A stretch of DNA of 51,201 nt. Origin: a virus (taxonomy: Duplodnaviria; Caudoviricetes). The DNA is taken from IMG/VR virus record IMGVR_UViG_3300030098_003235, positions 1-51,201 of that record; one strand, 5' to 3'. Numbering within the stretch: the stretch's first letter is position 1; each line of letters opens with the position of its first letter. The notes beneath the pieces were generated by a model. It made no database searches and was not told the origin of the DNA. It saw nothing but the letters and a program-made list of their open reading frames with translations. Positions 4,189-51,201 of this stretch are shown piece after piece. The translations under genes were made by a program, and so were the position numbers.

Positions 4189-4395
4189 TTAACAACCAGA
4201 ATCATTATCCTCATTGTTTTTTCTATTTGCTACAGAAAATAAATCTTCTGCTTTTTCTTTGTTTTTTAACGTTTCTACTTCTTTTAAGACAAGAGCTAAC
4301 TTAGCTTTTAAATTTGCATTGGCTGCTAATACACTATTTCTTTGATTGACTAAAATATCTACAAGTTCTTGTGTCGAGTTTAATTCTTTATCCAT
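4189..4395 (-). CDS. Small coiled-coil protein
   Basis: Likely start MDKELN at 4395; LVNQRNSVLAANANLKAKL heptads. Confidence 0.6.
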   Translation of the reverse strand: MDKELNSTQELVDILVNQRNSVLAANANLKAKLALVLKEVETLKNKEKAEDLFSVANRKNNEDNDSGC

Positions 4396-4576
4396 CTTTT
4401 TTTGTTCCTTTCTTTTTAATAAAAACACTCCACAATCTTGCTATCAATAATATAGAACCACCTATTAACATAAATAGTTGTAAACTTTGCTCTACCCATT
4501 GCAACCATATTGGTGTTGTTACCATACCTGTTGCAATAGCTGTATCTATTATTAGTTTTGGATCTGGAGAAGACAT
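4388..4576 (-). CDS. Small membrane protein, holin-like
   Basis: 62 aa; hydrophobic segments and Lys-rich C-terminus. Confidence 0.55.
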   Translation of the reverse strand: MSSPDPKLIIDTAIATGMVTTPIWLQWVEQSLQLFMLIGGSILLIARLWSVFIKKKGTKKDG

Positions 4577-4580
4577 ATAT

Positions 4581-4609
4581 ATTATACCTGTTTTTTAATT
4601 AAAAGTCAA
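4581..4609 (-). promoter_or_regulatory. Sigma70-type promoter inside the late arm
   Basis: TTGACT-17 nt-TATAAT, ending 4 nt before ATG 4576. Confidence 0.7.
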
Positions 4610-4616
4610 GTTATTT

Positions 4617-5150
4617 TTACCGTTTAAGTAAAGGATTATTTAGTGCATCTCTTAGTTTCTTATCTTGTCTTTTTTCAAATGTATCTAACTTTGAATCTAT
4701 ACCATTTATCTTAGCATCAAATCTACTAGAAGCTGATTCAGTAATATCACGAATATTTTTTTCTGCTTGTCGTAGTGCAGATCGTGTTTCTGCATCTAAA
4801 GCTCTTGACCTACGATCTACAGAGGATATACCTTCATATAGTTTAGTAGCATCAGCACGTACATCTTGACGTGTATCTCGTACAATATCCTGTACTTCTC
4901 CAACACGCACACGTACAGCATCCATTTGTTTTGTTACTGTATTCATTGTTTTGTTCATTACAGCTAGTTTCTTGTCAAAACCACTTAGGTCGGGGGCCGT
5001 ATAGCTTTCTATCTTTTCACGCATGTCCATATAATCTTTGTAAAATTCAAAAGCCCCATACAAACCGCCTACAAACGTAGACAGGCCCATGACCACAGCT
5101 AACATTTTGCCGCCTTTAAATTTTACGCCGCCAACCTCTACTTCAGCCAT
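4617..5150 (-). CDS. Membrane-anchored coiled-coil protein (cassette gene C)
   Basis: 177 aa; N-terminal hydrophobic helix MLAVVMGLSTFVGGLYGAF, long heptad region, NNPL end; TAATG-coupled to the upstream gene. Confidence 0.75.
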   Translation of the reverse strand: MAEVEVGGVKFKGGKMLAVVMGLSTFVGGLYGAFEFYKDYMDMREKIESYTAPDLSGFDKKLAVMNKTMNTVTKQMDAVRVRVGEVQDIVRDTRQDVRADATKLYEGISSVDRRSRALDAETRSALRQAEKNIRDITESASSRFDAKINGIDSKLDTFEKRQDKKLRDALNNPLLKR

Positions 5151-6562
5151 TATTTACTCCACTGACTTTCTATAAGATCGTTGTGCAGACCATTAGACTG
5201 ACCAAAGACTTGGTAATTTTGCATACGATCAATCATGCTAGGGCCATCAGGAATAGTAGAACTTGTAAAAAAATTAGGAACATCAGGAATAGTTGTTCCT
5301 TTAAATATACTTTTATTGTTAGCGATCATTCCCATTGCAACAAGTGTAACAGTCTGGGCCGTATTTCCATATTTTTGACTAGGCGCAATGTTGTCAACTA
5401 CTGTTTGAGCAGCAGTTGCTGGAGTTACAACAACAGGAACAGAAACTGCTGTTGTAGATGTTGTAGCAACAGTCTTTCGTGCTGTTTTTCCTTTTGTTTT
5501 CTGAGGCCGTCCTTTTGAAACTGTTTTAGGTGCAGACTGTGGTTCAGAAGGGCTGGGTTCAGAAACAGATTGAGAAGTAGGTTCAGGAGTAGGTTCTATA
5601 GTATTTTCTATTTGAGATTCTGCTTGTTGAGTTTCTGCCTGTTGAGTTTCAGATTGTTGGACAACAGGAGTAATTGTTGGTGCTGCAGGTGCTACAGGCT
5701 CGATAACAGGTGTCTGTATTGTTGTTTCAACAGTGGTTTCTGCTGTGCTTGTTGGTGCAGAAATAGTAACAGGAGCAGGAGTAGGAGAAGGTTCTACAGG
5801 TTGTACTGAAGCTACGCTAGTATATGTTTCAAGTACAGGAACAGTTGTTATTGATACTGTAGAAATAGGAACAACATCTGTCGTTACCGTTGATGCATCC
5901 ATAATATCATTATGGGTTTGGGTTTCTATAACATCATTTATTACTGTTGCTGTATCCTCAATCACCAACGCTGTCTGGTAGTCTATTGTAAGGCTAGGGT
6001 TAGAAAACTGTGGGCCGTAAAATCCAGATGGATACCCTGCATCTATGCCGTATAATTCTAATATTCCTGTTAAAACACCATAGCTGTTTGTTGCAACTGT
6101 ATCTGCATAATTGAAGTTTTTTAACCCTGTCCAGTTTAATTCTTCTTGATGTACAAAAGTTTCTACTGCAGTATTTCCATCTTTTAATGTGATAGTAAGT
6201 TTAAATATATCTCGGCAGTCTCCTGATTGCATTACACCATTTGCACACGTAGATAACCTGCTGTTTGAAGAGTGGCTGTCAATTGTTATTCCACTATTTA
6301 AAGTAAACCCTTGTCTAACTTCATCTTTAGTTAATGGAACATTAAAATTTGAAGTATATGTTCCTCCACCGCCATTTGTTCCACTTGTACAATATTCTCC
6401 AGAACTACACCCATGCCCCTGTCCTACAGACGTACTTCCTGAACGTGTAAAATCACTCATGCCCGGAACAAGGTTTGAAGTTGTGAGATCTTCTGCTTTA
6501 TTAGGTGTACACAACATAAGCGAACCTAACGCTATAGTAAATATACAAAGAAAACACTTCAT
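5150..6562 (-). CDS. Exported protein with Cys-paired beta-rich domain and P/T/E/Q-rich stalk (cassette gene B)
   Basis: 470 aa; signal-peptide-like N-terminus ending NKA; TAATG-coupled at both ends. Confidence 0.75.
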   Translation of the reverse strand: MKCFLCIFTIALGSLMLCTPNKAEDLTTSNLVPGMSDFTRSGSTSVGQGHGCSSGEYCTSGTNGGGGTYTSNFNVPLTKDEVRQGFTLNSGITIDSHSSNSRLSTCANGVMQSGDCRDIFKLTITLKDGNTAVETFVHQEELNWTGLKNFNYADTVATNSYGVLTGILELYGIDAGYPSGFYGPQFSNPSLTIDYQTALVIEDTATVINDVIETQTHNDIMDASTVTTDVVPISTVSITTVPVLETYTSVASVQPVEPSPTPAPVTISAPTSTAETTVETTIQTPVIEPVAPAAPTITPVVQQSETQQAETQQAESQIENTIEPTPEPTSQSVSEPSPSEPQSAPKTVSKGRPQKTKGKTARKTVATTSTTAVSVPVVVTPATAAQTVVDNIAPSQKYGNTAQTVTLVAMGMIANNKSIFKGTTIPDVPNFFTSSTIPDGPSMIDRMQNYQVFGQSNGLHNDLIESQWSK

Positions 6563-7230
6563 TAGTCGTTAACCTCTTCAAAAGGATTATAAATTGTATC
6601 CTGTTGATTTAATTTTTCTTGCTTTTTTTCTTCTGCTTCTTCTTTTGCAATTCGTTCAGCTTGTGCTTTTTTAAGTGCTACTTTACGAATTTTTGTACCT
6701 TTAGGAGAGGCTGTTGGATTTTTTAACCATGCTTGTTTAGCTTGTGTTCCAATCTTACCTTGGTAGGGACAGGGTGTACCTGCCTCAAACATAGCATCAA
6801 ACACTCTTGCATCTTGGCACAGAAGGCTTACACCAGCCACTTTTAATCCCATTCCATACAGACTACGTGCTAACTTTAAACGTTCACAATTTTTATCGCG
6901 TACTGTAGTTCCAACTGCTGCACCAAATACTGAAGTCTGTACAGCAGAACTTATTCCCGATACACATACGTCAGAGTTATTTACAACAACAGAAGGCGCA
7001 GATGCCGTAGATGGAGCTTTATCTATTACTGTACTTCCTGTCGTATTACTGGATACTGTATTTGATGCAGTTGTGTTACTTACTGTATTAGAAGAAGAAC
7101 TAACAGTATTAGAACTACTGCTTATAGTGTTGCTAGTAGTTGTATTAGTTACAGTATCTGTTGCATATATAGGAATTGGAAACAATGTAAAAGAAATAGC
7201 CAATAGTCCTAGTACAAATTTCTTTATCAA
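6562..7230 (-). CDS. Exported Cys-containing phage protein (cassette gene A)
   Basis: 222 aa; signal peptide ending IYA, S/T/N linker, domain SAPS..SDVC..DKNCERLKL..LLCQD..GTPCP; TTG start with AAGGAAG RBS. Confidence 0.75.
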   Translation of the reverse strand: MIKKFVLGLLAISFTLFPIPIYATDTVTNTTTSNTISSSSNTVSSSSNTVSNTTASNTVSSNTTGSTVIDKAPSTASAPSVVVNNSDVCVSGISSAVQTSVFGAAVGTTVRDKNCERLKLARSLYGMGLKVAGVSLLCQDARVFDAMFEAGTPCPYQGKIGTQAKQAWLKNPTASPKGTKIRKVALKKAQAERIAKEEAEEKKQEKLNQQDTIYNPFEEVND

Positions 7231-7246
7231 AATTATACTTCCTTTT

Positions 7247-7554: not shown

Positions 7555-9768
7555 CTAAGTTTTATATATTCCACTAAAATATAAATATCTTCCTGAACCA
7601 GCATTATGTTGAGTTTCTGACCATGCTGCTGCTGTTTTTGATTGGTAGAAAGCTACATCACTTGCTTGAAAAAATGGACATAAATTAACTGTCCCAGAAG
7701 CAATAGTCGCCATAGTATGAAAAGTTACATTACCTGTCATCTGGTTAGCAGGGCTGGGTGTGAAAGGTAAACCTGAAACTCTAATACCTCCAGCAGCCCC
7801 TGTAGTATTTGCGTCATTAAAAGCAGCAGTAACATAAACAAGATTACCTATTTTAGTATAATTAGCTGATACAGTTACAGCACTACTTGGATCTGATGTA
7901 CTTCCTTCTAATGCTGCAGTCCAAGTGCCTTCTTCATAATCATCTAAAAGATTAGCTGCTGTAGCACTTGTAACTCCTAAATATACACCTTTACTTGCAG
8001 TTCCAAAAAATATGTTGCCACCTGTAACTTCAATATCACTTTGACCTGTTGCAACTTCTAACACTGCGGTGTCGTCATCTCGTTTCAGAGTTATATCGTT
8101 TGTCGAGCCTTGCCCAGTAAGAATTAATCCTTCTGCACTTGTGTAACCTATTGCTGCATTATCTCCAGCAGCCGTATCTGAAGTAGCGTTAACTGTACCT
8201 CCAGAAATATCCCCGGTTGTTGTAATATTTGATGCGCCATTGTCAATTGCGCCAAAACCACTTGTTATTGAGCCAGTATCTAATGCGCCTGTCGTAACAA
8301 TATTGCTGCCACCAACATTATGAGATGAAAAATAAGTTGATACAGTATCAACATTTGTCATTCGCATTGTGCCAGCATCATTAATTAAAATACCATCTCC
8401 ACTAGCCACAGCCGTTGTGCCTCGTGAAGTACCACCATCAATAAGATTTATTTCTGCTGCTGTTGTAGTAACCGCAGTTGACCCCAATGAAAATTGACCA
8501 TCGGGAACAACAAGCCCTGCATCACCGCCTAAAATTAAATCATCAGCAGAAGCATCCCACAGCATATAAGCACTTGCTGTTGCACCAAATAATTTTACGT
8601 CATATCCAGTGTCATCTACACCTACTGTTAAAGTGCCATCTAGCTGTACGTTGCCATCTATATCAACTGCATCTAAATTTGTTGTACCATCTATATCTGC
8701 ATCTCCAGAAACATCTAAACTTCCAGCATCTAGCTCTCCTGACAACGTAACATTTCTAAATGTACCAATGTCTTTATTTGAATCAACAACTACTCCTAGA
8801 CTTGCTGTTACTGTCCCTGCAGTTACTGCATCTAAAACATTAAGTTCTGCTGCCGTAGTAGTGACTGCTGTACCCCCTATAAGTAATTTATCTTTTACAA
8901 TGTCAACCGTAGTTCCTCCAGCGGTAAGAAGCTTGTCTTCACTTTCATCCCACAATAAATAAGCACCGCTTGTTGCCCCAAAAAACTTTACGTCTACTCC
9001 TGTATCATCTACACCAAAAGTCGTCGCACCATCAATCTGTACTGTCCCATCTATATCTACAGCATCAAGATTGGTAGTTCCGTCTATATCCGCATCCCCA
9101 CTTATATCAAGGGAGCCACCGTCTAACTCTCCTGTAAGTGTAATATTACGAAATGATGCTACGTCTTTATTTGCATCTGCAGTAACAGTTTTAGAAGCAA
9201 CAACTGTCCCTACTGCTGCGCCTGTATCATTATAATTAAGTTCCGCTGTTGTAGCGGTTGCTCCGTCTAATATTTCAAGTTCTGCTTCAGATATTTCTGC
9301 TGAACCTATAGTTACAGTTCCTGATATATCTACGTTACCGTTAATATCAATAGTAGTGGCTGCTATCTGTATTTCTGTATCAGCTACTATATCAAGCTGC
9401 CCATCTGCACTTGAATTAAGATATATTGCTGTATCTCTGAAGTATAGTTTCTCATCAGAATTTACTAGCGCATCATCTGAAAATTTAAAGTAATCTTCAT
9501 CTTCCATCCAAGTTAGTACGCCGTCATTTGTTTCACCATCAAACGTAACCGCTATATCTGTTCCTGATGCTCCATTTCCAATGGTAATTGCAGTTCCGAG
9601 AAGCTTGGTTACAGGCCCTCCTTCTGCTGTTGTTCCATCATGTGTGTGACCTGTACTTAAATGAAATGATGCGTCAATTGCATTAAACTCAGTGGTAAAA
9701 TCTGACGCTTCAATTGTTTCGCCATCTACAAAATTAGTAGGGTCTGTTTTGGCATATCCTGTACCCAT
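7555..9768 (-). CDS. Tail fibre protein
   Basis: 737 aa, G/T/D/A-rich; N-terminal DGETIEASDF..EFNAI..GHTHDGT anchor; internal repeats; C-terminal LDDYEEGTWT...YTKIGNLV module. Confidence 0.85.
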   Translation of the reverse strand: MGTGYAKTDPTNFVDGETIEASDFTTEFNAIDASFHLSTGHTHDGTTAEGGPVTKLLGTAITIGNGASGTDIAVTFDGETNDGVLTWMEDEDYFKFSDDALVNSDEKLYFRDTAIYLNSSADGQLDIVADTEIQIAATTIDINGNVDISGTVTIGSAEISEAELEILDGATATTAELNYNDTGAAVGTVVASKTVTADANKDVASFRNITLTGELDGGSLDISGDADIDGTTNLDAVDIDGTVQIDGATTFGVDDTGVDVKFFGATSGAYLLWDESEDKLLTAGGTTVDIVKDKLLIGGTAVTTTAAELNVLDAVTAGTVTASLGVVVDSNKDIGTFRNVTLSGELDAGSLDVSGDADIDGTTNLDAVDIDGNVQLDGTLTVGVDDTGYDVKLFGATASAYMLWDASADDLILGGDAGLVVPDGQFSLGSTAVTTTAAEINLIDGGTSRGTTAVASGDGILINDAGTMRMTNVDTVSTYFSSHNVGGSNIVTTGALDTGSITSGFGAIDNGASNITTTGDISGGTVNATSDTAAGDNAAIGYTSAEGLILTGQGSTNDITLKRDDDTAVLEVATGQSDIEVTGGNIFFGTASKGVYLGVTSATAANLLDDYEEGTWTAALEGSTSDPSSAVTVSANYTKIGNLVYVTAAFNDANTTGAAGGIRVSGLPFTPSPANQMTGNVTFHTMATIASGTVNLCPFFQASDVAFYQSKTAAAWSETQHNAGSGRYLYFSGIYKT

Positions 9769-11291
9769 TACATTCTAGCTCCCAGTGTAAATTCTAGTGA
9801 AAATCCTTTTATTGTATATGTTGGATTTGTGCTTGAGTCAGTAAATTTTAAGGCTACTGCAAAGCCTGACCCCTCTACTGATTGCCTATATAGAGGTGGA
9901 TAAACACTTTCTCCATATGCGGCTGTACCGTATAACGAGGAGCCATACAAAGCTGCTCCTGCTGGGTTTTTTAAATCATAAGATGCAGGTTGTGCAACTG
10001 TTACATCATTATAATCATATATAAGAGACATATCTACATCTTCTATAGTTCCTGAAGGATTATAGTTAAGAATTACTCTTTGCATATTTTTTCTAATGCC
10101 TACATCTTGCATGTTATAGTCTGTTGTTCTGTATGTACAAGACATAGATGTTCCATCAAAATCGTTGCCACTTTCTTGAAGATAAACATAGCCCCCATCA
10201 TAATCTCCATGCACTACTTTTTCTGCATCAGAAATATATCCAGATGTTGCAATCATAGGCTTAACACCTTTAATATCTGAATATTCCCAGCCAACATTTC
10301 CTGTCGTCAAGTTTCTTTTAATTACTGCAATCAATCCTGTAGAAGCTGCTTCTGTTCCAGAAGTAGTAGGATAATATAATCTATATTGACTTTTGCTTCT
10401 TATTATGTGAGAAGATAAATTGTTTAATTGATCTTGAGTTAAACCGTTTAATCTGGGCTGAACCTGCTTAGATATAGTTCCTAATTCAGTATCTCCAATT
10501 TTTTCTGTCCCTGCTATAGTTCGCAACCCATCAGGTGCGAGAAAAATAAGGTCACCTGCAATCTCTTGTATAGAAAAGTGAGATAAACAGCCTATGTTTC
10601 TTGTTACAGGTTTTATTTGAAAATCTGCAGAACTCGACCCACTTAACGAATGAATACTGTTCTTACAGAATATAATTAATTGATTCCTAAAGGGTTTAAG
10701 GCTTATTACGTCATCTCCAAATGCAATCTCCCCTGCTCCTGAAGCAGCACTAAAATCGTTTTCAGTAAAAGGTGCAGAAAACTTTACTGCATGTGGAGCA
10801 TTTGACATACCAGAAAAAAATAAATGACCCTTAAATTCCTGTATTACTTCTGGGGCGGTAGGTTTTGCACCTGCTACAGATGCTGTTATTGTTGTATATG
10901 TACTGCCGTCCCAAAAAGCTGCATCATTTACACCGTCTGCCATGCCTATATTTTCTGTGCCATCCCAATTGTAGTTTGTAAATGAGTATCTTTCAGCACT
11001 TGTTCTATTTGTTGCAATATTTGTCCAGCCTGATCCTGCAGAATGTTGTACATTTGCTGCTCTTGCTGCAATAACTTTACTGTTTCCATAAAATGCTAGG
11101 CCCAGTATTCCTCCTGATCCCGACACTTGATTACTATCAAATTTAGAAAATCCTTTTATTTTAGCGTATCCACCGTTAATATCAGGTTCAAAGTTTTCAA
11201 GTGTAATTGCTTCTCCGGGTTGTAGTGCAAAAATACTTTTGTCAAGCACTAAACCTCCATCACAGTTTACAGGAAAAGCGTTGATTGGCAT
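9768..11291 (-). CDS. Tail nozzle / tail tubular protein B-like
   Basis: 507 aa, beta-propeller-like; GDLIFLAPDGLRT motif; lies between adaptor and fibre. Confidence 0.75.
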   Translation of the reverse strand: MPINAFPVNCDGGLVLDKSIFALQPGEAITLENFEPDINGGYAKIKGFSKFDSNQVSGSGGILGLAFYGNSKVIAARAANVQHSAGSGWTNIATNRTSAERYSFTNYNWDGTENIGMADGVNDAAFWDGSTYTTITASVAGAKPTAPEVIQEFKGHLFFSGMSNAPHAVKFSAPFTENDFSAASGAGEIAFGDDVISLKPFRNQLIIFCKNSIHSLSGSSSADFQIKPVTRNIGCLSHFSIQEIAGDLIFLAPDGLRTIAGTEKIGDTELGTISKQVQPRLNGLTQDQLNNLSSHIIRSKSQYRLYYPTTSGTEAASTGLIAVIKRNLTTGNVGWEYSDIKGVKPMIATSGYISDAEKVVHGDYDGGYVYLQESGNDFDGTSMSCTYRTTDYNMQDVGIRKNMQRVILNYNPSGTIEDVDMSLIYDYNDVTVAQPASYDLKNPAGAALYGSSLYGTAAYGESVYPPLYRQSVEGSGFAVALKFTDSSTNPTYTIKGFSLEFTLGARM

Positions 11292-12664
11292 TACACAGCC
11301 CTCATATAATCTTTTTGATTTATAAGTTCTGTTTTCATTCTACGAACCCCTGTTTCATAGTCTCTAAGAGAAAACTGTGTGCCTTCATTATTACCTCGTA
11401 GCTGATGAACATAGTATTTTACTTTTGCAACAATTACATCGTGATACCTAGATGGTATTTTAGGTTTGTCATCGTATGCGCTTAATTCTGCAGATGAGGT
11501 AAAGAAATTAAATAAAACTTCATATTGTGTTTTGTTTGCAATAGGAGTAACACCAAAGGCTATATCATTTCTAACTCGATATACGCACTCAGGCGTACCA
11601 AATCCATCATCAGGAGAACTAAGTGCTAAAAATTCATTCTGTCTATATGAAGAATGATACTTTCCATGTCCTGATTGATACTCTTCAAAAGTTTTGTACT
11701 GGAGGGGTTTTCCAGTTGAATCTACATCAAAAACTTCTATAAAATCTATATCAAGATTTTGACTTGCTGTATTACTAAAAGAAATAAATGTGTTTTGTGT
11801 AGATGCTGTAAATTTTGTAGTTCTTATTTCTCCACCACCTGTATTTGCTATTTGAAACGTAGTAGATAAGTCGGAATCTTTATCACTACTAGATCCTGCA
11901 AATACATTAAGTGTTTCAGATGTTGCGCTACTACTTCCTGATGATAGGCGTACCGTTATTCTGTACTCTTTATTTTCTATAGTCGGTATTGCTTGATCTA
12001 CACAACCGTCATTTAATCGTAGTACACCTGCAGCAAAGTTTTTATTTCCACTAGAGTCTGTGCTAATTGCTGGAGTACCAGATGTGCTAGTTCCTGCAGG
12101 ATCACTAGTGCGAGTATTCCAATACGACCCTAAAGTTATTGTTTTATCAAACTCTCCTTCAACAATAAGATTTCTAGGTCTTAAAAAGAAACTATCATAG
12201 TCTACGTCCATAGTATGAGTTATATTACCAGAAGTTGCTGTAACTGAGGAGTTTGCACCAGTTAAAGTTTCCGATGATTGAAACTCTCCCTCAATAGGTT
12301 CTACAAGAACATACTGTTCATCAGAGTGCCCACCATGAGGAGGTACTCTACGAACAATACCTTTAGCAGAAGACGTTCCTCCACTTATATATTCGTTATT
12401 TGTAAAAGCCCCACTTACACTAGATACTACTATTTTTACAGGATATTTATATTCTCCTTTTCCACCAAATAGAGTATAACTCGCTGTATTAAATTGCCAA
12501 GGCCATTGAATATATTCAGATTCAATATCTCTTATTGCTCTGTTAACATCTTTTTTTATTGTGGTTTGAACACCTCTAGTTCCAGATAGTCCAGCAGCAG
12601 ATTCTGCAATAGTAGTTTCATTTAAGTCGTATAAAACTGCATTAATTATTTCTGAATAATTCAT
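11291..12664 (-). CDS. Head-tail adaptor / tail tubular protein A-like, with large insertion
   Basis: 457 aa; N-terminal INAVL..LNE..VNRAIRDI..WPW and C-terminal IPSRYHDVIV motifs flank a beta-rich insert. Confidence 0.7.
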   Translation of the reverse strand: MNYSEIINAVLYDLNETTIAESAAGLSGTRGVQTTIKKDVNRAIRDIESEYIQWPWQFNTASYTLFGGKGEYKYPVKIVVSSVSGAFTNNEYISGGTSSAKGIVRRVPPHGGHSDEQYVLVEPIEGEFQSSETLTGANSSVTATSGNITHTMDVDYDSFFLRPRNLIVEGEFDKTITLGSYWNTRTSDPAGTSTSGTPAISTDSSGNKNFAAGVLRLNDGCVDQAIPTIENKEYRITVRLSSGSSSATSETLNVFAGSSSDKDSDLSTTFQIANTGGGEIRTTKFTASTQNTFISFSNTASQNLDIDFIEVFDVDSTGKPLQYKTFEEYQSGHGKYHSSYRQNEFLALSSPDDGFGTPECVYRVRNDIAFGVTPIANKTQYEVLFNFFTSSAELSAYDDKPKIPSRYHDVIVAKVKYYVHQLRGNNEGTQFSLRDYETGVRRMKTELINQKDYMRAV

Positions 12665-12987
12665 TTTTCAGTATCTCTATCTTTTTTGTTACTTTTGCTA
12701 TATGCTGGCATAAAATTTTCTCCTGTTTGAAATAAACAACCTATATCGGGGGCATAAAGAGGAGTAAACACTATAGAAAAAGATCTAGATTTTGGATCTA
12801 CGTATAGCATAAGTTTTTCACCAGACTCAAAATTTCCTGTTGCAAATAAAACTTCATTAAATTGTACGGTTAATTTATCTTTAACAAATGAAAGAGGGGC
12901 GCAAGCAGGTCTTGCATATGCAGATACGCCGCTTAAAAAAACTAACAGTAGTACTAGAAAAAATTTTTTCACGAGACTTTTCCCCAA
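12661..12987 (-). CDS. Small secreted protein, alphaproteobacterial-type two-Cys family
   Basis: 108 aa; signal peptide then CAP..L...FNE...G...LYVDP..SFSIV...CL..G pattern. Confidence 0.6.
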   Translation of the reverse strand: MGKSLVKKFFLVLLLVFLSGVSAYARPACAPLSFVKDKLTVQFNEVLFATGNFESGEKLMLYVDPKSRSFSIVFTPLYAPDIGCLFQTGENFMPAYSKSNKKDRDTEK

Positions 12988-13619
12988 GTTTTTTTTAAAT
13001 AATTCTGTATTAAATTTGCTTGTACAGAAAGTTGTTTATCTGTAGAACAGTAATTGGAAACAGCGTATAAGTTTTTTAATATGTATGTTTGTTCGTATGT
13101 TATATTCGATGAAAACCAACCTACTATATTTTTTCTTATTCCGCTTTTTATAGGTAAGACTTCATGCGGATATATAATAGGGAAAATTACCATCTCTCCT
13201 GCACAAAGTTTTTTGCCATATTTTTCAGAATTATCAAGAGTAAGTACAAATTCTCCACCCTCATATTTGTCTGATAAATTTAAGCTCCAGCCGTAGTCAA
13301 AATATATATTTTTTGATTTAGGACGAGCTTTAAATTCGTCTATGTGCAGGTTATAAAAATCTCCTTTTTTATATTCATTATAGAAATTTACAGATACTCT
13401 AGTAGGGCAATACACAGAATCACAATAATGATTATCGTATAATTTATCCGTAATTAATTTTCTAACTTTGTCTGAAACAGTAAAAGATTCTTTATTCTGT
13501 TTTAGTTTACCATCTGGTTGAGTTACATCACCAGATGCAAATGTTTTTTGTTCGATACCCTTTAAACAAACTTTTATCTCTTCATCATTTAATACTTTTA
13601 TAAACACATTTTCCTCCAT
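12969..13619 (-). CDS. 2OG-Fe(II) oxygenase, PKHD-type hydroxylase (YbiX/PiuC-like)
   Basis: HxD (HID), YEGGEF, HEVLPIKSGIR..VGW motifs; C-terminal helical extension ending in W. Confidence 0.85.
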   Translation of the reverse strand: MEENVFIKVLNDEEIKVCLKGIEQKTFASGDVTQPDGKLKQNKESFTVSDKVRKLITDKLYDNHYCDSVYCPTRVSVNFYNEYKKGDFYNLHIDEFKARPKSKNIYFDYGWSLNLSDKYEGGEFVLTLDNSEKYGKKLCAGEMVIFPIIYPHEVLPIKSGIRKNIVGWFSSNITYEQTYILKNLYAVSNYCSTDKQLSVQANLIQNYLKKTWGKVS

Positions 13620-16109: not shown

Positions 16110-17606
16110 CTATTGCATAACTCGTTCTGGAAACTGTTGAATTTCTCGTGTGTCCATTGTATTTTGAACTTTATCTAAACCGGGGCGCATCCTTGCTTGT
16201 TGACCACGAGTTGGTGGTTTTTCTTTTGGTAGTGGTGCGACTACCGCAGGTTTAGGTTTTTCTTTTGGTAGTGGTGCGACTACCGCAGCGTTATAAATTT
16301 TATTTGCAAAATCAATTCTTTTTTGTCTGCTGGCATTAGGGTTTTTAGGTCTTTCAAAAATTTCTAAAAATTTATTGGTTATTTGTTTTACATTACCAGT
16401 TTTAAAAATATTACGTAAAGATTCTCTGTTACCAAATCCTAAATCAGATGTTTCCCATTTTGGAAAATTAGCTGCTGTTTTATCACTAGTTATATTAATT
16501 GTATCTGTCATATATTCTAATTGAGAATCTATAGAGTCTGATTTTTTCATTTCTCGTAAATAATTTTCATAGGCTTTTTTTCTGCCGCCAGTAAATTGAA
16601 AAAGACCATATCCTTTGTTTTTTCCTTTTTTATCCTCTATACGTTTATAATCAAAAGTATCATTTTCTCCGTGAATATTTCCCATTATACCTGCAATAGC
16701 CTCTTCTCTATATCCTAAATTTTTTAATTTACGGCGTACATTGTTTTGATTTTTAATTATCTGGTCTTGAGAGGGTCTAATCTTTTTTTTTACCTGATTA
16801 CCTTTATTTAAAGCCTGTACCTGTTGTTGCATAGGCTCTACAGGAGCTTCTTCTTCAGCTATTCTCTCTTCTGTTTCTTTTTCACCACGTTTATTAATCT
16901 TTTCTAATAAGTCTAAACCTATCTCTTTAACAAGAATAGGTGGCAGATAATACTCACCATTGCTTACAGCTATATCTGTATCGCCTTCTACCTGTGCAGC
17001 AGGACTTTTTAATTGTTCTAAATTAATTTCTACGCCTTTTTTACGTAGAGACTCTATATTAGGTTTAAGAATACGTTCTTCAAAATCACGTACTCCAACA
17101 CGTTCTATAGCTGCAGCATTTACTACGTATGCCCCTTCTTCTGCATCCATTGGAACATCATCTGCAACACCTGTTTCAGAGGCTCCTTCTTGCATTATAG
17201 GGCCAGCAACTGCATCTACTGGTAAAACTTCAGCTAGAACATCTTCAATTGGAACATCTTCAGTTGGGGCAGGTGCAACAACTTGATCGCCTACTGCTAA
17301 CTGTTGCATCTGTTGTTCTATTGGTGACTGTATAGGTGTTTCTTCTTCTACAGGAGTTTCTTCTACAGGAGTTTCTTCTACAGGAGTTTCTTCTACAGGA
17401 GTTTCTTCTACAGGAGTTTCGTCAAGAGAGGCTTCTATAGATTCATCTACTAACTCTTCACTTATTATAATGTCAACACCAAGAACTTTTGCAAAACTAC
17501 GCAATTCCTCTGCGCCTATTTCTTGTATAACACTAATTACATTTTGTTGATCTATCTCAGAAAGATTTTGTAAGTTAGCATTAAATTGTTGTTCTGTTAT
17601 TTCCAT
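16110..17606 (-). CDS. Internal virion protein with phage tail lysozyme (Phage_lysozyme2-like) domain
   Basis: AIAGIMGNIHGE, GYGLFQFT, SIDSQLEY, FERP motifs at ~16290-16760; N-terminal TGVADDVP..EGAYVVNAAA motif. Confidence 0.8.
   Translation of the reverse strand: MEITEQQFNANLQNLSEIDQQNVISVIQEIGAEELRSFAKVLGVDIIISEELVDESIEASLDETPVEETPVEETPVEETPVEETPVEEETPIQSPIEQQMQQLAVGDQVVAPAPTEDVPIEDVLAEVLPVDAVAGPIMQEGASETGVADDVPMDAEEGAYVVNAAAIERVGVRDFEERILKPNIESLRKKGVEINLEQLKSPAAQVEGDTDIAVSNGEYYLPPILVKEIGLDLLEKINKRGEKETEERIAEEEAPVEPMQQQVQALNKGNQVKKKIRPSQDQIIKNQNNVRRKLKNLGYREEAIAGIMGNIHGENDTFDYKRIEDKKGKNKGYGLFQFTGGRKKAYENYLREMKKSDSIDSQLEYMTDTINITSDKTAANFPKWETSDLGFGNRESLRNIFKTGNVKQITNKFLEIFERPKNPNASRQKRIDFANKIYNAAVVAPLPKEKPKPAVVAPLPKEKPPTRGQQARMRPGLDKVQNTMDTREIQQFPERVMQ
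16216..16288. repeat. Two 34-bp identical copies, period 39 bp (AVVAPLPKEKP)
   Basis: ggtttttcttttggtagtggtgcgactaccgcag at 16216 and 16255. Confidence 0.95.
17343..17417. repeat. Five perfect 15-bp tandem units (ETPVE)
   Basis: ttcttctacaggagt x5. Confidence 0.95.
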
Positions 17607-33178: not shown

Positions 33179-33520
33179 CTATACGTGTGAATATTTTTTT
33201 AATGCTTCTGTTAATCTATGTTTACGAGATTCTTCATGATTTATAAAATCTGGTTTCTCTTCATACGCAAGAGATTTATCATATTTATTAGAGTGTTTTC
33301 TAGGCGCATATTCCCTATTGCTTTTTTTACATAGCCCCATTCTTTCTTTTAATCCTAACACAGAATTTCTAGTAAGAAAAGCCTGTAATTCGTTTTTACA
33401 AATTTTATTAGCTTGTTTAGCAACTTCCCTAGAACTAAGCCCTTGTAAAATTAATTCTTTTACAACTTTTTTAGTATTTGGTGTATGTCTAAATTTGTGC
33501 ATTAGTTGTTTTCCATCCAT
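33179..33520 (-). CDS. GcrA-like HTH regulator
   Basis: EL..QGLSSREVAK...TRNSVLG...RMGL matches the GcrA N-terminal pattern G.SASQIA..LG.TRNAVIGK.HRLGL. Confidence 0.6.
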   Translation of the reverse strand: MDGKQLMHKFRHTPNTKKVVKELILQGLSSREVAKQANKICKNELQAFLTRNSVLGLKERMGLCKKSNREYAPRKHSNKYDKSLAYEEKPDFINHEESRKHRLTEALKKYSHV

Positions 33521-44194: not shown

Positions 44195-44569
44195 TTACTT
44201 GGCGTTTTCGTTATTTATAGCTTTTTCGTAGTATATTATGATTTGTTTTTGTTGTTCTATGTATCTTTTGATCTCAGACATATTAAGCGCAAGATTTTCA
44301 TAATCTCTTACACTTATTGCGTAGAATAAAAAGCTTCCTACATCTTTTTGATATTTTGTTTTAAATTTTTCAAAGTTTTCTTCTGTAACTACATAGAACT
44401 GTATGTCTGTCATATCGACAGGACGAGGGCGTGATTGTACAGGAATCTTTCTCTGTACTTCTATCGTGCTTACTTTTAGTTCTTTAGTTTTTTTCCAAAA
44501 GGTACAGCCACTATTTAGAATCAGGAGTGGTAATACGCTCAAGGCTATTAAGTAATTTCTTAGTGCCAT
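44195..44569 (-). CDS. o-spanin-like lipoprotein
   Basis: Lipobox-like LNSGC; YENLALNM.EI.RYI.QQK.II.YYE; overlaps the upstream TM coiled-coil gene. Confidence 0.7.
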   Translation of the reverse strand: MALRNYLIALSVLPLLILNSGCTFWKKTKELKVSTIEVQRKIPVQSRPRPVDMTDIQFYVVTEENFEKFKTKYQKDVGSFLFYAISVRDYENLALNMSEIKRYIEQQKQIIIYYEKAINNENAK

Positions 44570-44897
44570 TGTTTATCTTCTTTTCTACTAAATCGGGTTT
44601 CTGTTGACTTAACCTTGTCAGGTCATGTTTTCTAAGTGCGCCTATCAATTTGTTTCTATACTTATTAGCTATCTCTAGCTTATTGTGAAGCCCTCTATTT
44701 AGTTTTTCAAATTTTTTTCTATCTTTTACCATAGTTTTAATAGTATGGTCTTGTTGTTGTTTTGCTGTTTCTAACTTAGCATTGTTCTTTGTAAGTATGT
44801 CAATACGTTCTTGAGTATCCTTATAGTAATAATATCCACCATAAGCGACAGATCCTACAAATCCTAAAACCATAATTAACATGTATACTTTTAACAT
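44511..44897 (-). CDS. i-spanin-like protein
   Basis: N-terminal TM helix plus coiled coil. Confidence 0.7.
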   Translation of the reverse strand: MLKVYMLIMVLGFVGSVAYGGYYYYKDTQERIDILTKNNAKLETAKQQQDHTIKTMVKDRKKFEKLNRGLHNKLEIANKYRNKLIGALRKHDLTRLSQQKPDLVEKKINNGTKKLLNSLERITTPDSK

Positions 44898-44898
44898 G

Positions 44899-45213
44899 CT
44901 ACTTACCTTTTGACATATAGGCAGTCATACCCATGTAAGCTCCCACAACTCCTGCCATTCCTATATAAAAAGTTGCAAAGAGTGATCCAAGTGCAGTTAT
45001 TCTTGAGTCAGGAAAGATAGGAAGAAATACAACAGCAGTAAAGACTATCATAACGATAAGGGATAACCATGCCATGCGACGTTGGGCATCCATTTTCTCT
45101 GCATTTTCTATTGCTTCCATAGCGGCTAATTCTGTATCACTAACCACTCCATCCCCATCAAGGTCTAGTTCAGAGTATTTACTATCTTTTTGTAATTTTT
45201 TTTGTCGGGCCAT
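44899..45213 (-). CDS. Holin-like two-TM protein with EF-hand-like loop
   Basis: DLDGDGVVSDTE, QRRMAW, two hydrophobic helices. Confidence 0.6.
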   Translation of the reverse strand: MARQKKLQKDSKYSELDLDGDGVVSDTELAAMEAIENAEKMDAQRRMAWLSLIVMIVFTAVVFLPIFPDSRITALGSLFATFYIGMAGVVGAYMGMTAYMSKGK

Positions 45214-49495: not shown

Positions 49496-51201
49496 TCAGT
49501 TGGTGGTATTTATTGCTGTATCTCTATCTTTTTCATATTGACTAGCATCAAATGATTGCGTAAACAATTTTCTAATTCCATCTGTTATGGAATTAGATTT
49601 TTTTGCGTCTGTGTTAACTTTAGCAGGTTCATTGCTAACACCTGCCTTTTTTCCAAATGATATTTTAGGCAGCTTATTTCCTTGAACTAGTTCACTAGAG
49701 AAACCATAAGTTATAGGAACAGTCTCTCCACTCATAAGATCAAAAGCAAACTTTCCACGTATATTTTTTCTAATTCTCTCTCTTTCTTCGTCAGTCCTAG
49801 CCGCTACGTATTCTTGAATCAGTGGAGCATTTACAACATATAGTCTATCATTGTCTCTGATAATTCCTAAAGTTCTAGAATCTCCTGCTTCTAATTTTAT
49901 ATCCCTTTCAATAAATGCGTTTAGAGCTACATTATTATATTTAATTACACCCGACGCATATTTATATTTATCACCAGATTTATTTATTGTATTAAATCCT
50001 CGCGCAGTTGCTGCTGTTAGCCTGTCTAAAAGAAAAGGTCTGCTGTAAGTATTAAAAGTAGAACCGTAAACCGTATTTAAAGGTTGATTTTTAAATTTAT
50101 CTTGAAATTTTCTATTGACAGTTTTAACAAAATGATCGACTACTCCATCACTACCACCTTTGTAATTTTGAAGTAGGTCTGATACTTTTAAATAGCTGGT
50201 AAATAAACCAGCATTAGCATTTGGCCCTAGTGCATTAGGAGTAAAAAATTGACCTCTTGTTAATGCCCTTTCAATAAAATCTTTTACTAATTCTAATTTA
50301 GCTAATTTTTGTTCTTTGTTTATAGTATCGCCACCAAATATTGATAAAGTTCTTGATACGTCTTGATCTGATATAGTTCTACCGCCTGTTCCACCCTGTA
50401 AAATAGCTGTTAATTGATAAGCTAGTGTCATTTCTAACGCTTCTCTTCTTGCAGCCGCTATTTCCTGTTGTTCAGATCGGGTTCTAACTCTTTTTTTTGC
50501 AAGCTCTTCTGCCTTCATATAGCGTTCTTTAATATTTTTAACTTTCGATACAAGCTTTGAGCCGTGGTCAAAAAACCCTCCGCCAGTAGCTGTAACTATA
50601 TTAAACATTTGTGTTGCTGCACCTTTTATAAAACTAGGAAGCGCACCTCTCATAACTATTAAATTATTAATAATTCCAGATCCTTCTCCTGTTTCATTAA
50701 CTGCACCAATAAGTCTTGTTAATGTAAAATTTGCACTTTCAGCAGCTTGGTATTGGTTATTTAACTCTTCTATTTTTTTTCTTTGGGTTGAATTATTTTT
50801 TAAATATGCCTCATAAGTAAGGGGGTCAGGAGGGTAACCGGGAGTACTATTGGGTAAAGTAGTATTTTGTTTAGCGTATATTCTAACCAGCTTAATGATA
50901 TCATTTTTTTTAATACGCCCTTGCTCATCTACAAAACCATGTTCACGATTAAATAACCATTTTCTTGCTTCTTCTTTCATTGTATCATCAGGTATAGCTT
51001 TTCCAGATATAAGTTTTACAAAAGGGCTATTAGCAGCAGACCAGTATTTGTTATTTCCTTCATTATTTTCTTGCTCCGGGTTCCAATCGCTTCCTATAAG
51101 GGACGTTAAGTTTGCTATATTTTTTTCAGGAGATATAACAGTAGTCATGCTTGTAGGTCTTGTAGAAGCATACACATTTGCTGCTAATTTCACAGCTTTA
51201 T
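49496..51201 (-). CDS. 3' part of the junction-spanning ~781-aa internal virion protein
   Basis: In frame with 1..739; LAYQL..ILQGGTGGRTISDQDV motif. Confidence 0.85.
   Translation of the reverse strand, partial: KAVKLAANVYASTRPTSMTTVISPEKNIANLTSLIGSDWNPEQENNEGNNKYWSAANSPFVKLISGKAIPDDTMKEEARKWLFNREHGFVDEQGRIKKNDIIKLVRIYAKQNTTLPNSTPGYPPDPLTYEAYLKNNSTQRKKIEELNNQYQAAESANFTLTRLIGAVNETGEGSGIINNLIVMRGALPSFIKGAATQMFNIVTATGGGFFDHGSKLVSKVKNIKERYMKAEELAKKRVRTRSEQQEIAAARREALEMTLAYQLTAILQGGTGGRTISDQDVSRTLSIFGGDTINKEQKLAKLELVKDFIERALTRGQFFTPNALGPNANAGLFTSYLKVSDLLQNYKGGSDGVVDHFVKTVNRKFQDKFKNQPLNTVYGSTFNTYSRPFLLDRLTAATARGFNTINKSGDKYKYASGVIKYNNVALNAFIERDIKLEAGDSRTLGIIRDNDRLYVVNAPLIQEYVAARTDEERERIRKNIRGKFAFDLMSGETVPITYGFSSELVQGNKLPKISFGKKAGVSNEPAKVNTDAKKSNSITDGIRKLFTQSFDASQYEKDRDTAINTTN
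49514..49558. repeat. 45-bp dispersed direct repeat, copy 2
   Basis: Matches 2074-2118. Confidence 0.95.
51103..51201. repeat. Second copy of the 99-nt terminal overlap
   Basis: Identical to 1-99. Confidence 0.97.

Follow-up and report, generated by a model that had tools for sequence, protein, structure and literature searches.

A widespread three-gene cassette of predicted envelope proteins in marine phages and its possible link to lysis

Which function could three coupled genes for apparently envelope-targeted proteins serve in a phage that already carries a recognisable lysis cassette elsewhere in its genome? The question is raised by positions 4617-7230 of the viral record IMGVR_UViG_3300030098_003235, which we analysed at its full length of 51,201 bp (hereafter the window); it is a complete viral genome with direct terminal repeats. 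The three genes, here called A, B and C, form a conserved, horizontally mobile, translationally coupled cassette. Our favoured reading, to which we give somewhat less than an even chance, is that the three proteins would make up a late-made periplasmic complex that is an accessory of the lysis or release step.

All three genes are real minus-strand open reading frames (ORFs), as the original prediction for this locus had stated: A (6562-7230) encodes 222 aa from a TTG start, B (5150-6562) 470 aa and C (4617-5150) 177 aa. The stop of A overlaps the start of B, and the stop of B the start of C, in the same TAATG arrangement (at 6562 and 5150), and a Shine-Dalgarno-like AGGAAG read from the sequence (7238-7243, minus strand) lies 7 nt before the TTG of A. 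Just past the stop of C is a sigma-70-like site, TTGACT-17-TATAAT (4581-4609, minus strand), with 11 of 12 matches. It is the best of 34 such sites in the first 12 kb of the window, a total that is not above shuffled expectation, so that only the quality and position of this one site count; it marks the downstream boundary of the cassette. The same 12-kb scan found no comparable site ahead of A, and the trio therefore reads as the tail of a fibre transcription unit, its 5′ neighbours being a 98-aa gene and a 737-aa gene (7555-9768). The trio had been placed between tail-fibre genes and an internal promoter; a strong promoter-like site does stand 3′ of C, whereas the tail-fibre label of the 737-aa gene is unconfirmed in PHROG and Pfam scans. 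The portal and adaptor proteins of the window match the SU10 type in Pfam, and its major capsid protein is nearest to that of pelagiphage HTVC033P (57% identity), followed by those of HMO-2011-type phages of SAR116, roseobacters and rhizobia. Given this portal and adaptor type and these capsid relatives, we assign the phage to the HMO-2011-type podoviruses; its host is most likely SAR11.

The cassette is by no means confined to this phage. We considered the best 80 loci of 566 relatives in IMG/VR, which are nearest relatives and not independent, and which collapse to 29 groups at less than 60% B identity (hereafter the dereplicated loci). An ORF for A was found in 74 of the 80. Of the 59 loci with at least 1800 nt downstream, 58 had B as one of the next two ORFs; of the 54 with at least 3200 nt downstream, 52 had C among the next seven, and the strict A-B-C order held in 37 of the 54. 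The A domain also occurs in 13 annotated phage records, six of which are pelagiphages of different kinds (HTVC115P, HTVC023P, HTVC202P, HTVC033P, Baldr and the myovirus Mosig); BLASTP and hidden Markov model (HMM) searches place B-like and C-like genes beside A in all six, at differing genome positions. HTVC027P and HTVC022P, the phages of a published data set (PMC12753301), are not among the 13. The similar trios in marine phages that the original prediction had mentioned are thus borne out. A looser arrangement is found in roseophages CRP-810 and CRP-207, which have A and C with an unrelated middle gene, and in the freshwater myovirus L097 (MW202675.1), which has A-like and C-like genes. Taken together the trio spans podo-, sipho- and myovirus-type genomes with unrelated structural modules. 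Among about 185,000 species genomes A appeared in only three short contigs, a lower bound from a pattern-based scan. At E≤0.001 the A family comprises 5277 proteins among 8000 scored candidates, the B family 416 among 7998 and the C family 2439 among 2628, and the proteins that an exhaustive HMMER search found for the A domain alone fall into 1157 clusters at 50% identity; these family sizes put all three genes far beyond chance ORFs. None of the family members carries an informative name. A literature search of limited scope yielded no description of the cassette in the parts of the sources that it covered (PMC9599517, PMC6811365, PMC12753301, PMC9038755, PMC13712998 and 10.1101/2019.12.14.876532).

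What kind of proteins are these? Calls of signal peptides, topology and export for A, B and C come from simple heuristic rules (charge, hydropathy and a cleavage-like site) rather than from a dedicated predictor. By these rules A has an n-region holding two lysines, an h-region of 20 residues and, at 23, a cleavage-like I-Y-A, and B has a signal-peptide-like N-terminus with an h-region from residue 3. Among 69 aligned relatives of A, 59 have a similar N-terminus, as do 29 of 30 relatives of B, in line with the signal peptides that had been proposed for both and, together with the TAATG junctions, with the description of the genes as coupled and envelope-targeted.

After its N-terminus A has the expected S/T/N linker (residues 24-75; 31% T, 29% S and 13% N, or 73% for the three), and then a conserved domain at about 79-178 with the four cysteines, at 89, 115, 138 and 154. 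The first two bracket a Gly/Ser-rich amphipathic beta hairpin (90-111), the last two lie in a helical part, and a K/E-rich helix (180-213) follows. C89 and C115 are invariant in the 69-sequence alignment, while C138 and C154 are both present in 59 of the 69 and both absent in the other 10 (10 of 10 losses being joint), which is expected of a disulfide pair and so indicates an oxidising compartment. A is thus probably a Sec-exported, disulfide-bonded protein. An AlphaFold2 model of the full-length protein, built on the 69-row alignment, has a mean predicted local distance difference test score (pLDDT) of 77.7 and exceeds 90 over about 110-210; it predicts a compact helical domain with one hairpin (strands 90-98 and 103-111), four short helices and the long K/E helix. 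Foldseek found nothing in the PDB for this full-length model at E≤0.001; ‘no known fold’ is a provisional description. A wide structural search gave a best Z of 4.1, at the level of helices only and mainly on the C-terminal one, a search of BFVD returned only uncharacterised phage proteins, and the A profile had zero matches among PDB sequences.

B is the largest and most composite of the three, with the Cys pairs, stalk and C-terminal domain that had been described for it. Its beta-rich N-domain (about 25-200) contains the Cys pairs 52/58 and 106/116 and conserved D115, D118 and D174. It is followed by a T/P/E/Q-rich stalk (about 215-340; residues 215-365 as a whole are rich in T, P, V, S, Q and E) with a K-rich patch at about 345-365, making the stalk acidic and then basic, and by a conserved helical C-terminal domain (about 380-470) that ends in SQW. 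Mean pairwise identity over the 29 dereplicated loci and the window is 32.7% for the N-domain and 31.1% for the C-domain, and the N-domain falls into several subtypes in a diverse alignment. The AlphaFold model of B (mean pLDDT 42.7) is unusable for a fold search. Of the named protein-atlas clusters, those of sugar-binding beta-sandwich families come nearest, though their score of 0.76 is weak, and the B-like protein of HTVC033P is annotated as carbohydrate-binding; the B profile met only low-complexity-type matches among PDB sequences, the best being to Nop56 (E 0.0017) on the charged linker. We infer that B is Sec-exported, its lectin-like beta domain being joined by the long stalk to the helical domain at the C-terminus. 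Searches of Pfam (E≤0.01), NCBIfam, PADLOC and PDB sequences found no relative of A or B; Pfam runs on the 69 A relatives gave no shared family, and those on 30 B relatives none at E≤0.05 beyond coiled-coil or low-complexity ones.

For C, the proposed membrane anchor and coiled coil both have correlates in the sequence. Its best 19-residue hydrophobic window, taken as a transmembrane (TM) helix, is 16-34, preceded by three lysines and followed by a net acidic flank, and family searches gave matches of coiled-coil type only; PADLOC, for instance, matched it only to the coiled-coil tail region of ZorA2 (E 6.5e-7) and to LeoBC, and some relatives are annotated PF28217 in the database. The protein would accordingly sit in the inner membrane, N-in/C-out, with its coiled coil in the periplasm. 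The conserved parts are the N-terminal peptide MAEVEVGGVKFKGGK, a juxtamembrane stretch that includes APDLSGFDKK, and a C-terminal tip, ALxNPL, that is nearly invariant in the alignment of relatives. The coil between them varies in length, giving proteins of about 150 to 282 aa, and C has no cysteine. Two roseophage genes, CRP-810 gp51 (L087:6141-6563), labelled ‘lysozyme’, and CRP-207 gp73 (L095:3292-3873), labelled ‘putative lysozyme’, are C homologues with the NPL end; gp51, the one of the two that was tested, had zero matches to muralytic families, and both labels are likely misannotations.

The pattern of constraint within the cassette is uneven. The Cys domain of A has a mean pairwise identity of 64.5% over the 29 dereplicated loci, with a minimum of 50%, and residues 1-62 of C have 60% over 28 sequences, compared with 31.6% for the coiled coil in the same set; core parts of the cassette show less divergence than the capsid proteins of the phages that carry them. 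That the Cys domain of A and the membrane-proximal part of C are the most constrained suggests that they may engage each other or a conserved host component. A complex prediction of A(70-222), B(25-215) and B(365-470) with C gave a score of 0.00 with controls not run, and speaks neither way.

An indication of function comes from the company that the cassette keeps. In the 29 dereplicated loci we took as neighbourhood the three ORFs at most on the 5′ side of A and the four at most on the 3′ side of B, 186 in all, and scanned 162 of them with PHROGs, the 24 dropped being mostly small or on the opposite strand. Holin, endolysin or Rz-like neighbours were labelled in 10 of the 29. In L005 and L011, C is followed by a phrog_27150 membrane protein and then by a phrog_739 Rz-like gene; in L031 and L045 an Rz/Rz1-like pair stands just 5′ of A; in L015 a holin sits between B and C; in L019, L023 and L051 a holin and/or endolysin lies a few genes past C; and in L018 and L080 an endolysin lies past C. 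Similar examples are found among the annotated phages. HTVC023P has an M15 endolysin directly 3′ of its C-like gene, HTVC033P an amidase and a membrane protein just ahead of A, and in a freshwater podovirus (L096) an A-like stretch is followed by a gene in the position of B annotated ‘transport protein tonB’, to which the B HMM had no match, and then by a membrane protein and a lysozyme. In Mosig the trio is preceded by a multi-TM protein (phrog_6637; L085:568-1026, Mosig 00203). A phrog_6637 protein, a family of unknown function, also follows the trio in L015 (5396-5869), and a look-alike judged by eye (L096:6919-7416) is directly ahead of the freshwater lysozyme, which has a hydrophobic N-terminus; proteins of this type may be a holin family.

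The window has its canonical lysis cassette at 44195-45213 on the minus strand, recognised by PHROG matches and a lipobox. It encodes a 104-aa protein with two TM helices (phrog_27150), a 128-aa i-spanin-like protein with a TM helix and a coil (phrog_739) and a 124-aa o-spanin-like lipoprotein (phrog_812, lipobox LNSGC). The spanin-like genes that had been reported at 44195-44897 are therefore present, by their Rz-like PHROG matches and the lipobox of the 124-aa protein, and are distinct from the trio. The phrog_27150 and Rz-like families next to C in L005 and L011 are the same as those of this cassette, so that trio and lysis cassette are contiguous in close relatives and separated in the window, and the gene after C in CRP-207 resembles, on reading the sequences, the 104-aa membrane protein of the window. 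Proteins of this phrog_27150 type, of about 104 aa with an acidic EF-hand-like N-terminus and two hydrophobic helices, occur in the window (44899-45213), L005 (6591-6902), L011 (3678-3992), L023 (2754-3065) and CRP-207 (L095:3870-4226), where they adjoin Rz-like genes on the 5′ side or C on the 3′ side; they are candidates for a holin or a lysis regulator.

Since holins, endolysins and spanins stand beside or even inside the trio, we read it as belonging to lysis or release rather than to a secretion or display machine. Under this favoured reading the cassette would be part of late transcription. Its three products would assemble in the periplasm into a complex that has the layout of a spanin without being one. 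As infection ends, this complex would act on or sense the cell wall and outer membrane, and would either help to break up the envelope or set the timing of lysis. A bolder form of the idea, which we regard as possible but on balance doubtful, is that the trio represents a lysis apparatus of a new kind, made of three periplasmic parts and passed between phages that infect SAR11 or other aquatic bacteria. In such an apparatus C would be the inner-membrane coil, A, exported, disulfide-bonded and highly conserved, would engage a conserved component of the host envelope and B would be a fast-evolving lectin-and-stalk protein. The whole would complement holin, endolysin and spanins, either by adding a fourth step to the break-up of the envelope or as the sensor by which lysis is timed.

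Several observations weigh against a role in lysis. Lysis neighbours are absent or unlabelled in 19 of the 29 dereplicated loci, and in HTVC202P and Baldr the trio is just upstream of the large terminase, far from the annotated endolysin. With about three clustered lysis genes among 60-80 genes, roughly one locus in 7-8 would be expected to show such a neighbour by chance, a figure that is itself an estimate with no computed baseline, as is any enrichment drawn from it. Module boundaries marked by lysis or tail-fibre genes also house unrelated accessory genes (morons), so that closeness does not amount to proof. A holin-like gene and an Rz/Rz1-like pair are already present in the window, leaving no missing lysis step in need of the trio. 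With both of its domains evolving fast, B would be better matched to a ligand that varies, such as surface glycans, than to peptidoglycan, which does not. What is shown directly is gene structure, coupling, conservation, co-occurrence and closeness to lysis genes; export, topology, disulfide bonds, complex formation and the lysis role are inferred, and a listing of public runs named no RNA data set.

One step that might seem to be missing is the endolysin: no stand-alone endolysin is recognisable by Pfam or PHROGs in the complete window genome, where the sole muralytic domain is a Phage_lysozyme2 in a 498-aa virion-type protein (16110-17606). Pfam, PHROG and NCBIfam searches found no muralytic domain in A, B or C, and we reject B as the missing endolysin, given that the trio-bearing phages HTVC023P, HTVC033P, HTVC202P and Baldr carry separate endolysins, though B might yet hide an enzyme of new fold. 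A 507-aa gene of the window (9768-11291) has a full-length match to an ‘amidase’ PHROG and also matches virion-protein PHROGs.

In layout the trio resembles the two-component spanins. By our heuristics C has the plan of an i-spanin such as lambda Rz, with an N-terminal anchor, a periplasmic coil and a conserved C-terminal tip, and A can be likened to the small exported, Cys-containing partner; the trio genes are coupled and lie near holins and endolysins, and a 71-aa lipoprotein of L097 is weakly similar to half of the A domain (E 4.6e-4). This protein (L097:886-1101), with a lipobox-like VAAC, lies between TM-plus-coil and A-like genes and may be a lipoprotein version of part of that domain. 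However, A has no lipobox and no cysteine before residue 89, and the inspected A relatives have no canonical lipobox either. A large third protein stands between A and C, C lacks cysteine and has a coil of variable length, and the trio has no sequence relation to spanin PHROGs. A spanin pair is an outer-membrane disruption system normally present once per genome, whereas the trio co-occurs with a separate Rz/Rz1-like pair in the window, L031 and L045, and with an Rz-like gene in L005 and L011. The separate pair at 44195-44897, the lipobox-less A and the third protein together rule out that the trio is the spanin pair of this phage. Another resemblance in layout is to the lysis-inhibition set of T4, in which holin T with its periplasmic domain is joined by the secreted antiholin RI. 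Like the trio it combines a type II membrane protein having a large periplasmic domain with a small exported partner near lysis genes, but no relation in sequence or fold is known, and T4 is not known to have a B-like protein; such a layout would suit the control of lysis timing.

The original prediction had envisaged a trans-envelope or surface-display system, with superinfection exclusion, receptor masking, adhesion or uptake as possible roles. The genomic company favours lysis or release over secretion and display, while exclusion or receptor masking survives as a live rival, if a rather unlikely one. Here the lectin-like domain of B would bind a variable glycan of the host surface or periplasm, with A and C holding B at the envelope, and the effect would be to block competing phages or to keep progeny off the debris of the lysed cell. 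The variability of B speaks for this reading, with mean identities of about 32% in both domains and several N-domain subtypes, and the sugar-binding atlas clusters and the carbohydrate-binding annotation in HTVC033P point the same way. So do the movement of the cassette between unrelated phages with common hosts and its position just 3′ of labelled tail-fibre or tail-spike genes in 5 of the 29 dereplicated loci, as also in CRP-810 and in the window (there with the unconfirmed label). However, we looked for similarity of the B domains to the phage's own fibre and adaptor proteins and found none, a result on which we reject the idea that B mimics these receptor-binding proteins and which weakens masking more generally. 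The trio belongs to a late operon of lytic phages and lacks its own promoter, whereas known exclusion genes are mostly early or lysogenic; PADLOC anti-phage families gave zero matches for A or B; and the very high conservation of A across unrelated phages is unusual for exclusion proteins.

An improbable explanation is the one originally put forward, with A as an oligomeric pore of beta hairpins in the outer membrane, C as the element bridging the periplasm, and B as a passenger that leaves through A to be displayed on the cell surface. The amphipathic Gly/Ser-rich hairpin of A between its invariant cysteines, the long stalk and lectin-like domain of B, which are suited to display, the inner-membrane coiled coil of C and the co-occurrence of all three would fit such a device. 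The A model is compact and helical with a single hairpin, whose hydrophobic face could equally pack on the helices, and neither Foldseek nor the wide search, whose hits were mainly to the C-terminal helix, revealed a similarity to pores, CsgG, secretins or autotransporter anchors, leaving the pore unsupported. There is no Pfam match to any secretion family, the cassette has no energy source or ATPase, its neighbours are lysis rather than secretion genes, and B as a displayed passenger fares no better, with no evident export route across the outer membrane.

Two further systems call for comparison. The pelagiphage curli (type VIII) module described by Wittmers et al. (2022; PMC9599517) consists of CsgG, CsgF, CsgA/B, a histidine kinase, FecR and an adenylate cyclase, and is reported to be absent from cultivated HTVC023P-type phages. 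It resembles the trio in being multi-gene, envelope-targeted, mobile between unrelated pelagiphage families and abundant in ocean viromes. HTVC023P, however, does have the trio, and none of the curli Pfam families is matched (E≤0.01) by any of its three proteins. The different gene set and the lack of CsgG, CsgF or curlin-repeat matches rule out a curli identity. TonB and TolA recall both the acidic-then-basic, Pro-rich stalk and C-terminal domain of B and the anchor and long helix of C; B differs from them in having a cleavable-type signal peptide and an N-terminal beta domain in place of an N-terminal anchor, and Pfam searches of B and its 30 relatives found no TonB_C or TolA match.

Highly improbable is that the three are virion or ejection proteins whose hydrophobic N-termini insert into the host envelope at DNA delivery, as T7-like internal proteins do. 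In its favour, late structural genes surround the trio in the window, with the fibre gene on one side and, on the other, 715-aa and 1417-aa proteins that resemble internal virion proteins by size and position only. Against it, the place of the trio is not fixed relative to structural genes (before terminase in HTVC202P and Baldr, near DNA-metabolism genes in Mosig, L018, L026 and L036), and the trio is common to podo-, sipho- and myovirus-type genomes with unrelated structural modules. Signal peptides of cleavable type and Cys pairs that are kept or lost together also suggest proteins of an oxidising compartment.

With these systems set aside, the trio is a cassette with thousands of homologues in marine metagenomes and without an assigned family, fold or function. 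If it does act in lysis or release, the textbook three-step model of holin, endolysin and spanin would need one more component, and this in a virus-host system that is dominant worldwide; if its effect is to mask receptors, it would matter for how the most abundant phages compete with one another. In either case the trio is a concrete target for testing, and the roseophage relatives infect culturable hosts.

The surroundings of the cassette hold further small genes. The product of the first one past the promoter-like site (4388-4576, minus strand) is a small membrane protein of 62 aa whose tail is rich in K; it has holin-like features but had no family match in PHROG and Pfam scans. Near it, at 4189-4428, is a coiled-coil protein of roughly 68-79 aa, and small membrane or coil proteins like these two are interleaved with the trio in HTVC115P, Baldr, L015 and L018. 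Elsewhere in the window, a 2OG-Fe(II) oxygenase gene (12969-13619) lies in the structural module between the capsid and adaptor genes, and the SU10-type adaptor (11291-12664) has a weak match to DUF642, a sugar-binding beta sandwich (E 3.6e-5, below the Pfam cut-off). A GcrA cell-cycle regulator is weakly matched in the early region at 33179-33520 (E 1.5e-4, likewise below cut-off). Finally, a minus-strand gene runs off both ends of the window, at 2-745 without a stop and at 49496-51199 without a start; the two pieces probably join over the repeat or junction into a single gene of about 800 aa.

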